Below, in pieces: positions 3,266 through 30,972 of a stretch of 64,000 nucleotides of DNA. The notes beneath the pieces were generated by a model. The model was not told the origin of the DNA. It worked only from the letters and a program-made list of their open reading frames with translations, and did not search any database. The position numbers and the translations under genes are program-made. Within the stretch, counting starts at the first letter, position 1; every line of letters begins with the position of its first letter. Source of the stretch: a virus; the IMG/VR virus record IMGVR_UViG_3300027793_000055, positions 64,001 through 128,000 of that record, one strand, 5' to 3'.

Positions 3266-4531
3266 TCACGGAATTGAGCCAGATATAGCAAATAATCGTG
3301 CAGCTATTCTATCAATTGCTTGCCTAATCGTTGTTGGATCGGGATCTGTCCAATGAGCGCCGTTTGCTGGTGTATAAGCTATTGTACTAAATGAACCAGT
3401 ATCTGCTCTTATCGTTTGGAAATCAGCTATAGCACCAAGAGATGTTCCAAGTGTTGAAGTTGTTTTATTAAATACAGAATTTGAGTAACTGAGTGTTCCG
3501 CCTATTATAATTCTGGTCGGTAATCCATTAGTATCTACTGTGGTTGAATCTACCATTTGTATTACGCTGGATGGTGATACTGAAGTTATAGCCGTACCGC
3601 CACTACTTGAGGCAATAATAGTAGAATCATTTATACCTAAAGTTCCAGAAATAAGAACTGGAGAATATAGCGTTATACTATCTCTGACTGTAACAAATGC
3701 AGTTGGATTATTTATTGTGAAATTTGAACCAGATGAAGACTGTGTACCTCCCTGAAATTCTGTAAATCCACCACTAACAACTGAAATATTTCTATTAAAA
3801 TCGCTATCAGTTGCTCTAAAATAAGCAGTTGTTGCTTTTGTAAAAGTGTCATTTATTTTACAATTATCTAAAAATAAAGCGCCAACACCACTATGCACCA
3901 AATTTGCAAGAGATATGCCGTATAATCTTATTGAAGAAGCCGGCGCAATTGACTGTGAAACGGTCATTGTTCCGGAGATATTTACTTCTCCACCATTTGT
4001 TCCTTGTGCCGCACAAATAGTGGTGTTAAATTTACCCATCGTCACATTTTCAATATATGTACCAGGGTGTATGACGATTTGATCTCCACCTTGTGTTGAT
4101 GCAGCTGCGATACCAGCAGCAACCGTTCTGTATGGACTCAATAATGTGCCATTACCAGTAATATCATTACCGCTGCCAGTTGAGACGTGCCATTCTCTTG
4201 CATACACATTTGAAGAAGCAGAAGCAGCATTTGTTGCGAAACTTGCTGTTCCAGCCAAGTTACCACTAAAAGAGCCAGTTATACTTGTTGCTTGTAAGCT
4301 AGTTAATCCGGTTACAGAACTGGCTAATGAAACAGTAACATCACCACTGGTTCCGCCACCAGTTAAATTAGTGCCAGCTGTAACAGAAGTTATATCTCCT
4401 GTTCCACCACCGCCACCACTTACTGTACCAGCAACCCAACTAGTACCATCATAAACTAGTGCATTACCACTAACAGGAGGTACGGCTGGAACTGGTATAG
4501 AATTTTTTGTAAAGCCGTCATTAAAACTCAT
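3266..4531 (-). CDS. Tailspike/fibre with right-handed parallel beta-helix (pectin-lyase-like), possible depolymerase
   Basis: WHVSTGSGNDITGNGTLLSPYRTVAAGIAAA...GDQIVIHPGTYIENV cap followed by ~22-aa beta-helix rungs; N-terminal ALVYDGTSWV.GGGGG fibre linker. Confidence 0.7.
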   Translation of the reverse strand: MSFNDGFTKNSIPVPAVPPVSGNALVYDGTSWVAGTVSGGGGGTGDITSVTAGTNLTGGGTSGDVTVSLASSVTGLTSLQATSITGSFSGNLAGTASFATNAASASSNVYAREWHVSTGSGNDITGNGTLLSPYRTVAAGIAAASTQGGDQIVIHPGTYIENVTMGKFNTTICAAQGTNGGEVNISGTMTVSQSIAPASSIRLYGISLANLVHSGVGALFLDNCKINDTFTKATTAYFRATDSDFNRNISVVSGGFTEFQGGTQSSSGSNFTINNPTAFVTVRDSITLYSPVLISGTLGINDSTIIASSSGGTAITSVSPSSVIQMVDSTTVDTNGLPTRIIIGGTLSYSNSVFNKTTSTLGTSLGAIADFQTIRADTGSFSTIAYTPANGAHWTDPDPTTIRQAIDRIAARLFAISGSIP

Positions 4532-4532
4532 T

Positions 4533-28800: not shown

Positions 28801-29545
28801 CTAATAATACATCGTTTGCTCCATTTGTACCGGATACAAATGTGACATAAAAATTATTTTCTTCACCAATATTTCCTGGGTGGGTTTCAATGGTGAATCT
28901 TGCATAATCAGAAGAAGTAAAAGAAGCGCTATTCCATAAATCAAATATTACTTGTTTAGCAGAACCGGATAGATCTTCTTTTTTTATATAGAATTCTACT
29001 GTTACACCATCTTCACCGTTCAAACTAAGATTACTGGCTCTTTTAAAGTCCTCATTATAATAGTTTGATTTTCCAAATAGATTTTTGGCAGTGTCTGTCT
29101 GACTATAAGTATTTGGACCACCTTTGATTAATATATATTCAGGCTTATCAGTAATAGAATAGCCATTACTTGTACTGGTGATGGTACCGTAATCAAAGCC
29201 AAATTTTATAAAACCAGTGTTTCTTGGATATAAATTATTAAAAGTATAGTTTGTTAATAATGAACTACTATTAAACCACTCTGTCTTTTCGTTTCTAGAA
29301 CCATCATATGGAAAACTTTTATAAATTAATTTTATTGAATCTGCATAATATTTTTCTGCAGAACCAAACTTTGCAAAGTTTTCAGGTTCTGAAAAATCAA
29401 TATCTGGTATGAATCTGTCTTTTTCTATTCTTGCGGACTCTACTAATTTTACTGATTCTACCTCTTGACCGATAGTCTCGGGATCAGTTAATGGGAGTAT
29501 TTTTCCAGATTTTTTACCAAATAGATCTTTAATCGACATTATCAT
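25841..29545 (-). CDS. Baseplate wedge protein (gp7/gpI-like) with LamG domain
   Basis: TVEFYIK...WHHIAIT...LFQDGEL...SASLDEFRYW...LGVYYKFNEG LamG domain; IYRSKGTEKSIRNLLRCFG wedge motif. Confidence 0.7.
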   Translation of the reverse strand: MIMSIKDLFGKKSGKILPLTDPETIGQEVESVKLVESARIEKDRFIPDIDFSEPENFAKFGSAEKYYADSIKLIYKSFPYDGSRNEKTEWFNSSSLLTNYTFNNLYPRNTGFIKFGFDYGTITSTSNGYSITDKPEYILIKGGPNTYSQTDTAKNLFGKSNYYNEDFKRASNLSLNGEDGVTVEFYIKKEDLSGSAKQVIFDLWNSASFTSSDYARFTIETHPGNIGEENNFYVTFVSGTNGANDVLLAANNITDSNWHHIAITAKNDNSTIAFQLFQDGELLSQELSGTTVSQVQGPMMATIGSLVHDTGSAGLGYGKLSASLDEFRYWKSKRTDKDIFRFYFTEVYGGTNTDDANTDLGVYYKFNEGIFNNQQFSAYDANVIDYSGRISNGTWFGYSVGSRETGSALIESGFTQEEPADPILYPNHPEVLILIQTLQQKTISYDQMNNSSIYNSFASWILEEDQEKGEGLLEITQIISEYLDEMFYHIQSLPTLKDEDFRKQNPLPFSKRLVESRGLSTVELFSDSTILETVLSRNEQDVYDEKIYHIKNSIYQNIYNNILYIYRSKGTEKSIRNLLRCFGIDTELIKINLYADDQSFTFEDRYEYTSQKRKFVDFNNPDRFEGTVYQVTQSGEPNSLAYIVGDIDSKYFGNTIEIETIFPRKYDINEDQYFETNFLSSSVFGMHQPQSTVDYNTWATNDSASIQIFGVRPERESKDSYFLLSSSCFGVQLTSSLFKDVYTDQKWLFAIRIKNEKYPFDGVVIGADNGDYILEFSGFNTELDILKESFIVSASIDKTIAEAYFTANKRLYVGSHHQNFTGSVIVGSDNKQQLSDLQIGTVRYWLNYIPEEVLISHALDITDAGPESFVQNVENALITQLKDQTIPQSETLVLHWRFDSIEVSDNGAGTPTLGLNDAGFDVIDLSSGSIDQLSRYEIVSDISRRLYPGRGDFFLRNNDKVVAYEYVANAKRRQPEILNNDDLISILQQDDITYVRDMVPVNHFLSIEKSMYQNISEEMLRWIGTIKQFNNLLGKPADRYEMEYRDLSFLRRMFFEKVDNTPDFEKFVEFYKWIDWSVGKIIQEIIPASMGTTTIASNIVESHILERNKYRHKLPTLEFRKKDPIAAIRTINELKYNWKFGHAPIPLEEDTNCLWWKERDIDNRQDREQIFNVLKSTYDRKFTTVYDLNTDAIVIINKNPKEQEVVKQITKFGSGEYLEIDIPSIVDKKDCNDK

Positions 29546-30972
29546 TCCTCAACGCGAAATTTAAAAACTTCCCTTTGTTCAATTTCTAAGCCAAATTCTT
29601 TAAACTTAAATTTAACACCATATGTATAACCTGGTTCAAAAATTGACATATCTAAGTCAAAATAATTACCAGTATCATCATATGACAATCTTGTATATTC
29701 TATGTCTTTATCACCATATGGAATAATTTCAAGATTATCAACTATTCTGAATATCTTGTAATATGCTTTTCTGATAGTGAAATTTTCTGCATTTGCTTTT
29801 GAGATTGTATAAATTGTAGGATCCCAATTTTTATCACGTACATACAAATTAAATCTTGCTTGCTCATTGGCAGAATAAACAGTCTTTAGATTTGTTATAT
29901 TTACGGAATAATCTGATATTTGAAAATCTGATTCGTTATCTCCGTCACCAGATTTAACATCAAATGCACTACCGGTATAATAATAAATATTATCACCATT
30001 ATGCCATACATCAAACAAAAGTTGTGCTTCTGTATTCACAACAACTTCAGCTTCATAAATTCCTTTTCTTATTCTTGTTGCTGCAATATAGCCTAGTCCA
30101 AAATTATTATCTAGTGGTACAGGTAAACCAGCTGGTCCTAGAGTACCAGAATAGATACTACAATATAGTTCTGTATTTGGATTACCAGCAATATCAGATA
30201 ATAAACCACGATGACGATTATACATATATAATCTGTTTATATTGTCTGCTTCCGGTGCTAGTGAACTACTCTTGTAAAAATAGTTTCTATCATCTCGTAT
30301 AGATTCATCAAATCGTGCTTCTATCCAAGGACGTTTATAAAAGAATTGACTTCCTCTAGCAAAGAACTTTTTAGTATAATATGTTCTTGAGCCACTTTCT
30401 ATAATATCTGGTAATTTTACTATTAATCCATTTGGTTCTACAGCACCGGTAATCCACATTTCTACAATCGAAGTGATATCTATTTCTAGATCTTCATTGC
30501 CTCTATCAAAATGTTGCTGAAATATGGTACCCGTTAAAAAATCGCCGCCCTGATTAGTCCAAGAAGAAGTCAAAGAGGAAGACAGCCAATTGGCAGCATC
30601 AATATCCGAATAACCTTCCATATCTAAACCTAAACCTTCTTCCCAGCTACTTGATACGGGATGAACTATTAGATCAAAGTTTCTTGGAGTAGTATAACCG
30701 TGTTCTGCATTACTCAGCTTGAGAACAAACTGTGTGTTGCCACTCACCGGAATATTTAGTTCTTGCCTATCCTGTATAATATCAGATATAGGAAAATCAA
30801 CTAAAATACGTGAGGCTTCCGAGGAAGTATTTGAAGCCTGAGCATATAACGAGTACACTTCTAGAACGTCAGATTCGCCCATATTTGAATTTAAAGCACG
30901 TGTCTTTAAATTAGATAAAAACCCATTTGTTATGGTAGTATCTTTATTTGCAAAATATCTCTTGATACCCAT
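29542..30972 (-). CDS. Baseplate protein with DNRLRE/CBM96-like domain
   Basis: YFANKDTTI...SRILVDF...LKLSNA...VHPVSSSWEEG...W.N.GGDF...EIDITSIV..W...NGLIVK. Confidence 0.6.
   Translation of the reverse strand: MGIKRYFANKDTTITNGFLSNLKTRALNSNMGESDVLEVYSLYAQASNTSSEASRILVDFPISDIIQDRQELNIPVSGNTQFVLKLSNAEHGYTTPRNFDLIVHPVSSSWEEGLGLDMEGYSDIDAANWLSSSLTSSWTNQGGDFLTGTIFQQHFDRGNEDLEIDITSIVEMWITGAVEPNGLIVKLPDIIESGSRTYYTKKFFARGSQFFYKRPWIEARFDESIRDDRNYFYKSSSLAPEADNINRLYMYNRHRGLLSDIAGNPNTELYCSIYSGTLGPAGLPVPLDNNFGLGYIAATRIRKGIYEAEVVVNTEAQLLFDVWHNGDNIYYYTGSAFDVKSGDGDNESDFQISDYSVNITNLKTVYSANEQARFNLYVRDKNWDPTIYTISKANAENFTIRKAYYKIFRIVDNLEIIPYGDKDIEYTRLSYDDTGNYFDLDMSIFEPGYTYGVKFKFKEFGLEIEQREVFKFRVEE

Follow-up and report, generated by a model that had tools for sequence, protein, structure and literature searches.

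An order-specific tripeptide of the outer virion proteins of an aquatic T4-like phage as a candidate O-glycosylation sequon

The outer virion proteins of an uncultivated T4-like myovirus of water carry the tripeptide [ST]GS (serine or threonine, glycine, serine) about four to ten times above expectation. The phage is represented by a single contig of 187,750 bp (IMG/VR record IMGVR_UViG_3300027793_000055), and the 64,000 nucleotides analysed here, bases 64001-128000 of that contig, are referred to as the window. An initial annotation of the window had counted the motif by hand in its open reading frames (ORFs) and suggested that it marks glycosylated proteins. All of its per-ORF counts were reproduced (13 for about 12 in the ORF at 8668..10008, the rest as stated), as were the low ones: no copy in 13961..16228 or 16234..19440, 3 in the 2091-amino-acid (aa) protein and 4 across all ORFs at 43-64 kb. 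Judging from its statistics, its placement and the genes that accompany it, we consider the chances about even that [ST]-[G>A>S]-S is an O-glycosylation sequon on the outward-facing parts of the virion.

The excess was measured against composition-matched shuffles at three scales: whole protein, 20-aa blocks and 10-aa blocks. In the ORFs at 3266-30972, TGS occurs 40 times against 6.3-7.1 expected (z 13-14) and SGS 31 times against 7.6-8.0 (z 8-9), and at every scale the two rank first and second in over-representation among all 8000 tripeptides. Since the excess persists in the 10- and 20-residue blocks, local richness in S, T and G does not explain it. The permutations and neighbours GSS, SSG, GST, GTS, STG, TSG, TGT, AGS, GGS and NGS are at expectation in these ORFs, and the variants SAS (18 seen vs 7) and SSS (24 vs 12), already remarked upon in the initial annotation, are mildly raised. 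An order-specific short motif, standing above composition in its putative substrates, is the form that a protein-glycosylation sequon takes.

A compositional or DNA-level artefact, arising from low-complexity S/T/G stretches or from a repeated DNA word, would fit the carriers' richness in S, T and G and the existence of a commonest coding word for the motif, ACCGGTTCA. The first version was rejected on the survival of the excess under local shuffling and on the same-residue permutations, which are not enriched. As for the second, position-3 serine is drawn from two unrelated codon families at background use (TCA 25, AGT 20, TCT 17), and the preference for pyrimidine-ending codons at position 1 holds genome-wide before GGN, including before Gly codons with no following Ser, which argues for selection on the protein and not on a DNA word. 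We regard an artefact as refuted, with very little probability left to it. The codon effect is a feature of the whole genome (G000), in which A-ending codons are avoided before Gly: the third base is A in 23% of codons before Gly vs 37% overall, and the ACA share of Thr codons goes from 46% overall to 24% before Gly.

The specificity of the motif was refined by pooling data on 24 enriched relatives (201 proteins, 182,600 aa). At position 1, X-G-S is enriched solely for T (4.7x) and S (3.6x); at position 2, T-X-S shows an excess of G (4.7x), A (2.7x) and S (1.9x); and at position 3, T-G-X is clearly enriched for S alone (4.7x). Beside the motif there is a deficit of K, E, D and R, and the common turn sequences D-G-S and N-G-S show no enrichment. 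Taken position by position, these values define the motif as [ST]-[G>A>S]-S with uncharged neighbours, a specificity that looks like that of an enzyme.

As the initial annotation had held, the enrichment is selective for virion proteins. Over the whole genome the virion modules contain 111 [ST]GS against 28.6 expected (P ~1e-31), and the other 171 ORFs contain 15 against 15.5. Carriers outside the window include the tail sheath (7 seen vs 1.0), a 1172-aa protein (10 vs 3.2) and a capsid protein (3 vs 0.7), while the portal, terminase, SbcC, gp6, gp25, tube-region proteins and enzymes have zero motifs. The tube is expected beside the sheath, and the ORFs adjoining the sheath carry none; within the window, the absence of the motif from the pair of large ORFs at 13961..19440 has P ~0.02 under an assumed 4-fold enrichment. 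The claim that the motif spans unrelated folds holds for tail fibres (by PHROGs), sheath and capsid; most other carriers returned zero family matches in Pfam and PHROGs searches. The 1172-aa protein (G000 43035-46553, L002:14035-17553) has no PHROG match and contains at least four copies of units of the form ...QSNLDS[VA]SGSL..., so its motif copies are not independent of one another.

The sheath shows where in a protein the motif lies. The 120 sheath homologues nearest to the 939-aa query (identity 49% or more), mapped onto it, average 5.8 motifs vs 1.25 expected. The inserts (residues 101-330 and 451-600) hold 692 of the 700 instances, with 109 expected (6.3x), and the core (N-terminal 100 residues, residues 331-450 and C-terminal 340) holds 8 vs 54 expected (0.15x). 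An AlphaFold2 (AF2) model of the sheath, with a mean predicted local distance difference test (pLDDT) of 84 and a predicted template modelling score (pTM) of 0.85, is of the T4 gp18 type (Z 21-23 to the KP1, T4 and pyocin sheaths), and only about 310 of its residues align to minimal pyocin or contractile injection system sheaths. In the model all seven sites fall in loops or turns between secondary-structure elements, sites 144, 160 and 171 at the hairpin tips of one beta-sheet domain. The conserved N- and C-terminal parts of contractile sheaths form the inner layer, and inserted domains face outward. The placement on exposed parts proposed at the outset is thus consistent with the modelled sheath, where the sites would occupy loops and turns of non-core inserts.

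In the giant baseplate protein (window 20457-29545) the number of sites is steady and their positions are not. In relatives a protein of roughly 3000 aa has about 20 sites, whose positions shift: an alignment of 29 sequences, at only about 30-40% identity so that part of the turnover may be alignment error, has 179 motif-bearing columns, 76 of them in a single sequence, and a few columns are conserved in 14-24 sequences. In the protein at 25841..29545, three sites are shared by 15-23 of 28 relatives. Turnover at a steady site number is the pattern expected of a signal of the glycan-shield type. In most relatives the giant protein is one continuous ORF of about 2800-4700 aa; it is split into two ORFs in this phage and in L004, L005 and L015.

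The motif is not a generic trait of T4-like virions, a possibility rejected on two members. T4 has no excess (baseplate-to-head 5 seen vs 10.6, long fibres 7 vs 5.0; 0.5-1.4x), nor does cyanophage P-SSM2 (16 vs 14.4; 1.1x). The closest cultured relatives, distant at about 30% gp6 identity, are Microcystis phage Mel-JY01 and Flavobacterium phage immuto, and both are enriched (5.1x and 3.9x). IMG/VR relatives were gathered through the giant baseplate protein and three gp6 alignments, yielding more than 600 by gp6, and about 150 unique relatives with enough sequence downstream of gp6 were scored. Their excess ratio is bimodal, with seven contigs at 0.8-2.2 and all others at 2.9-8.0 (median about 5). 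In a three-gene tree the unenriched contigs form a single clade (support 0.957), and in gp6 trees they make up two groups, neighbours of each other but separated by a nested enriched tip (0.90-0.99); FastTree was used for the 74-sequence tree. This topology allows for only one or two independent loss events.

The motif-less lineage reveals what replaces the motif when it goes. Twelve conserved motif columns were defined by presence of the motif in at least 40% of enriched sequences. In the enriched sequences, S/T occupies position 1 in 87% of cells, G position 2 in 78% and S position 3 in 79%; in the unenriched ones the values are 35%, 59% and 44%, with replacements such as GGS, IGS, DGT and KAS. 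The homologues in this lineage are 33-50% identical and keep the fold, and because the Gly turn is also largely retained as the hydroxyl residues are lost, a purely structural need for the motif is argued against. One contig of this lineage, G014, is unenriched throughout (sheath 2 seen vs 1.0, capsid 2 vs 0.5, whole contig 48 vs 33.8). A search of G014 for a substitute sequon found none, tandem-repeat tripeptides alone standing out; collagen-like GPQ and SLETRLSN-type repeats dominate the tripeptide statistics of its structural proteins (contig ~66-78 kb, L157).

These comparisons bear on the idea that [ST]GS is a structural habit, that is, a favoured beta-turn or hairpin sequence inherited with certain domain families. 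Such a habit would account for the flanks, which in the window are frequently hydrophobic at alternating positions in a strand-turn-strand pattern, for the sheath sites at hairpin tips and in loops, and for the fibre copies that sit inside repeated units such as LNVTGSLTVTGS. It would not readily account for homologues that retain the fold and mostly the Gly yet drop the Ser/Thr, for the turnover of sites between relatives, for the occurrence of the motif in fibres, giant baseplate protein, sheath and capsid alike, or for its absence from the T4 and P-SSM2 homologues and the lack of enrichment of D/N-G-S. We consider this explanation disfavoured and improbable.

The second line of evidence for a sequon comes from sugar genes. 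The stretch 43584-51261 encodes a DegT aminotransferase, a NeuD/PglD-type acetyltransferase, a GDP-mannose 4,6-dehydratase (Gmd), three GT4 glycosyltransferases and a 295-aa ORF, predicted to amount to a GDP-N-acetyl-perosamine pathway plus transferases. The phage-encoded glycosyltransferases, the three GT4 ORFs and a GT9-like ORF, lie at 45699-51261; searches of the GT4s against PDB and NCBIfam gave generic GT4 matches only and no known protein-glycosyltransferase family. The GT9-like ORF is the 295-aa one (45699-46586), which has no Pfam family and whose first 56 residues match lipopolysaccharide heptosyltransferase I (E 5e-6, 26 bits vs a cut-off of 185). In the relatives, with the exception of G002, orthologues of GT4a and GT4b (39-89% identity) come after a PD-(D/E)XK nuclease gene, and the island beyond them has its far end at the homologues of window 43135-43383 and 42094-42858.

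The island is covered in 16 enriched genomes (G000, G001, G003, G004, G006, G007, G008, G011, G013, G016, G017, G018, G019, G021, immuto and Mel-JY01; records L010, L053, L048, L293 and L299 do not cover it). In all 16 a cassette, between 5 and more than 16 kb long and of different content in each, comes after the GT4 pair, and a cassette is present in none of the four unenriched genomes with the stretch covered: G009, G014 and G015 have the pair with neither cassette nor motif excess, and G002 has neither pair nor cassette. A fifth unenriched record, G022, retains the GT4a end and a G009-like spacing to gp6 and lacks PF01370, a family found in 0/5 unenriched records (including G014, 145 kb, 80% complete) vs 5/5 enriched. 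The cassette was predicted beforehand, and then found, in enriched G019, which stands beside the unenriched contigs in the gp6 tree. Motif and glycosylation genes therefore co-vary, although the Fisher P of 2e-4 for the association ignores phylogeny and the contrast represents one or two independent events. An NDP-sugar (nucleoside diphosphate sugar) dehydratase/epimerase type is the sole near-universal family of the cassettes (15/16), and 9 of them have a DegT-type aminotransferase. As third transferase most cassettes have a GT2, sometimes fused to GT4b, and this phage has a GT4.

Several features of the relatives' islands may be recorded here. GT4b is C-terminally extended to 647-724 aa in several relatives (L066:13227-15269, L173:2309-4252, L171:2276-4450), with a Pfam GT2 domain in two of the three extended forms checked (G003 and G017) and none in the G013 form; in other relatives a separate transferase is the next ORF, a GT2 in G001 and G006. 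The sugar island of the complete genome G001 appears to be about 25 kb (contig 40.5-66 kb), with five NDP-sugar epimerase/dehydratase genes. Among motif-enriched phages, the GT4a orthologue of G019 (contig 28277-29470) contains one in-frame TAG and that of Mel-JY01 (83441-84932) is annotated as two coding sequences.

The initial annotation had taken the motif to be an acceptor for the adjacent glycosyltransferase cluster and proposed checking whether enrichment co-occurs with the GT4/Gmd cluster across phages. For the cassette the comparison supports this, and phages without the sugar genes, whether unrelated or of the sister lineage, are unenriched; for the GT4 pair it does not. The pair was rejected as a sufficient partner, since it is still there in motif-less G009, G014 and G015; by these comparisons it is at most necessary, and not sufficient, for the motif excess. 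GT4 homology also failed as a predictor more widely, in the actinophages TJE1 and phiPsal1 (distant GT4a matches at 22-25% identity, no [ST]GS excess) and in RM378 and LR756508.

A number of observations weigh against a direct enzyme-substrate relation. The GT4 pair of the motif-less lineage is under purifying selection (dN 0.17 and 0.24 vs 0.13-0.17 for neighbours, dS being saturated), and as it evolves like its neighbours without the motif, it is evidently functional without it. No transferase family is common to all 16 cassettes, so that none stands out as a conserved reader enzyme, and the transferases differ between genomes. RM378 and LR756508 have GT4a homologues and an excess of just ~2x. 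The notion that cytoplasmic proteins shun the motif is not borne out, the count in the other ORFs being at expectation, and the association of motif and cassette rests on one or two evolutionary events. Finally, G002, G009 and G014 lack, at the syntenic site, the fibre block 3266-10858 and the preceding MFFY-tagged genes, so that homologues of 2738..3253 and 10887..11864 are adjacent, and a shift of host or lifestyle could explain both losses.

This last point leads to a common cause. The motif might adapt exposed loops to a host or an environment, by way of solubility, resistance to aggregation or weak binding to glycans of the host surface, with no enzyme-substrate link, while the cassette serves host-surface remodelling or superinfection exclusion, both being dropped when one sub-lineage changed host. 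The confinement of the unenriched contigs to one region of the tree, their missing fibre block and MFFY genes, and the resemblance of the cassettes to O-antigen gene sets would all fit. An order-specific tripeptide with a strict position-3 Ser is hard to derive from general physicochemical adaptation, and we judge a common cause unlikely, if worth taking seriously.

Alternatively, the motif may receive another modification (phosphorylation, acylation, phosphoglycerol or similar) from an enzyme of phage or host origin, which the motif-less lineage would have lost or ceased to encounter. The enzyme-like specificity would suit this equally, as would the persistence of the GT4 pair without the motif and the lack of a shared cassette transferase. 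Twelve genes, a list that is provisional given that G014 is 80% complete, are common to G000 and enriched G001 and absent from all unenriched records: sugar genes, an AAA ATPase, a NUDIX protein, an Hsp20, a deaminase-like protein, the virion ORFs 4533..4928 and 7554..8636, and small uncharacterised ORFs. Among them the sugar genes alone have the potential to modify proteins, and no kinase was seen, which makes a modification other than glycosylation distinctly unlikely.

We therefore return to O-glycosylation, the likeliest of these readings, and outline how it might proceed. Acceptor Ser/Thr residues in loops and hairpin tips, with uncharged flanks, would receive O-linked sugars from soluble phage-encoded glycosyltransferases acting in the cytoplasm, either while the protein folds or once it has folded. 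The variable cassette beside the GT4 pair would supply nucleotide sugars as donors, here the predicted GDP-N-acetyl-perosamine. The outcome would be a sugar coat over fibres, baseplate periphery, sheath inserts and capsid inserts, which may serve shielding, stability or adhesion, and a swap of cassette would change the type of sugar and leave the protein-encoded sites as they are.

It is tempting to extend this to the group as a whole, although we hold the extension tentatively and at somewhat less than even chances. A very large aquatic T4-like group (more than 600 gp6 relatives in IMG/VR, with members cultured on Flavobacterium and Microcystis) would coat its entire outer surface by way of [ST]-[GAS]-S, a hot-swappable cassette setting the sugar, and a lineage that lost the cassette would have let its sites decay. 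Such a system would be a phage equivalent of serotype switching, built on a fixed scaffold with several hundred acceptor sites per virion subunit set.

The carriers and sugar genes of the window are collected in Table 1. Nearly all window genes lie on the minus strand. PHROGs matches in the window are to tail fibres (5032-8636) and to gp6-like and gp25-like baseplate wedge proteins (30972-33199), and upstream of it to tail sheath, major capsid protein, portal and large terminase; together they underlie the assignment to the T4-like myoviruses.

Table 1. Motif carriers, motif-less ORFs and sugar genes of the window; counts are seen and expected under shuffling.
Feature	Position	Strand	Observation
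421-aa tail protein with [ST]GS	3266..4531	-	5 seen, 1.97 expected; weak PHROG tail-protein match
131-aa protein with [ST]GS	4533..4928	-	3 seen, 0.48 expected, p=0.0125
840-aa tail fibre with [ST]GS	5032..7554	-	9 seen, 2.44 expected, p=0.0005; PHROG tail-fibre families
360-aa tail fibre with [ST]GS	7554..8636	-	7 seen, 0.56 expected, reached by 0/2000 shuffles; PHROG tail-fibre families
446-aa fibre-like protein, densest carrier	8668..10008	-	[ST]GS 13 seen, 2.54 expected; [ST][GAS]S 25 seen, 7.3 expected
166-aa protein with [ST]GS	10028..10528	-	3 seen, 0.42 expected
325-aa virion protein, five TGS	10887..11864	-	5 seen, 0.47 expected; motif-less G002/G009 homologues 1/0
Two large ORFs without motif, 755 and 1068 aa	13961..19440 (13961..16228, 16234..19440)	-	0 and 0 seen, 0.34 and 0.59 expected; no family matches
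1790-aa baseplate protein, C-terminal part of giant protein	20457..25829	-	14 seen, 1.95 expected
1234-aa baseplate protein, N-terminal part of same giant protein	25841..29545	-	5 seen, 0.99 expected
476-aa baseplate protein	29542..30972	-	[ST]GS 2 seen, 0.39 expected; [ST][GAS]S 7 seen, 1.17 expected
gp6-like baseplate wedge without motif, marker for finding relatives	30972..32774	-	0 seen, 0.33 expected; PHROG baseplate wedge
Variable sugar cassette	43584..48746	-	GT4c, Gmd, 295-aa GT9-like ORF, NeuD/PglD-type acetyltransferase, 102-aa ORF, DegT aminotransferase; Pfam and NCBIfam
Conserved GT4 glycosyltransferase pair	48743..51261 (GT4a 50020-51261, GT4b 48743-50023)	-	Pfam Glycos_transf_1

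To our knowledge, the only known cases of virions glycosylated by phage or viral enzymes are the mycobacteriophages, where C-terminal tails are modified, and the giant viruses. Among cellular systems, the GtfA/GtfB pair of Gram-positive cocci, adjacent, GT4-fold and cytoplasmic, acts on Ser in S-[A/V/E]-S type repeats of serine-rich adhesins. The phages share with it an adjacent, conserved GT4 pair and a motif of the S/T-[G/A/S]-S type. The similarity to GtfA is marginal (E 0.002-0.01; PDB 4pqg, E 0.009) and far under the NCBIfam cut-off, the best score against TIGR02918/TIGR02919 being 17 bits vs 575. Unlike the adhesin repeats, the phage sites are isolated tripeptides, and in one lineage the pair persists without them.

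The heptosyltransferases TibC/TibA and Aah/AIDA-I hyper-glycosylate loop Ser residues in a beta-rich passenger in the cytoplasm, prior to export (Yao et al. 2014, PMC4358343), and such bacterial autotransporter heptosyltransferases (BAHTs) recognise their acceptor in structural context (PMC4358343). The strand-loop-strand context of the phage motif is similar. BAHTs are GT9-type iron-binding dodecamers that use ADP-heptose and have one dedicated substrate, whereas the phage has GT4 enzymes, its relatives also GT2, and one weak GT9-like ORF, with many unrelated putative substrates and varying donor sugars. Full-length similarity to TibC or to heptosyltransferases was not seen, the 295-aa ORF matching over 56 N-terminal residues only.

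In mycobacteriophages, virions are reported to be glycosylated by enzymes that the phages themselves encode (Freeman et al. 2023, Cell Host Microbe, PMC10527164, via PMC12619734), with glycans on the C-terminal tails of capsid and tail-tube subunits (PMC12619734). Like these phages, the present group, read here from its genes, would O-glycosylate its own structural proteins in the cytoplasm with its own soluble enzymes. It differs in that the candidate sites are an internal tripeptide in dozens of loops of fibres, baseplate, sheath and capsid, and in the pairing with large swappable sugar-synthesis cassettes. The candidate acceptor is not a Ser/Thr-rich C-terminal extension of capsid and tail-tube subunits: the sites are internal, in loops of many proteins, and the sheath-adjacent ORFs have none. 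In the actinophage phiPsal1, a distant GT4a match, transferases lie between capsid and neck genes.

Giant viruses (chloroviruses and Megavirinae) have their own nucleotide-sugar pathways, including those for amino-dideoxy sugars, together with transferases; the sequons at which they decorate virion proteins are non-canonical, and the sets of sugars are specific to clades (PMC9614988, PMC10117803). GT4a weakly matches chlorovirus B736L (PDB 3oy2, E 2e-5). These viruses have eukaryotic hosts and mostly N-linked (PBCV-1) or fibril glycans, in contrast to a bacteriophage with a candidate O-linked tripeptide. Among the open-access texts searched, no paper was found that describes an [ST]GS motif or glycans on virions for immuto, for Mel-JY01 or for aquatic phages of the T4 type. 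What is new here is the natural loss lineage and the insufficiency of the GT4 pair.

As two enriched relatives, immuto and Mel-JY01, are in culture, the proposed glycosylation is directly testable. If it is true, sugar-coated virions would be predictable from sequence alone, and a new bacterial-type O-glycosylation specificity would be added for glyco-engineering. It would also explain the large, fast-changing sugar islands of such phages, and would matter for their adsorption, for grazing and aggregation in water and for the immune recognition of phage particles.

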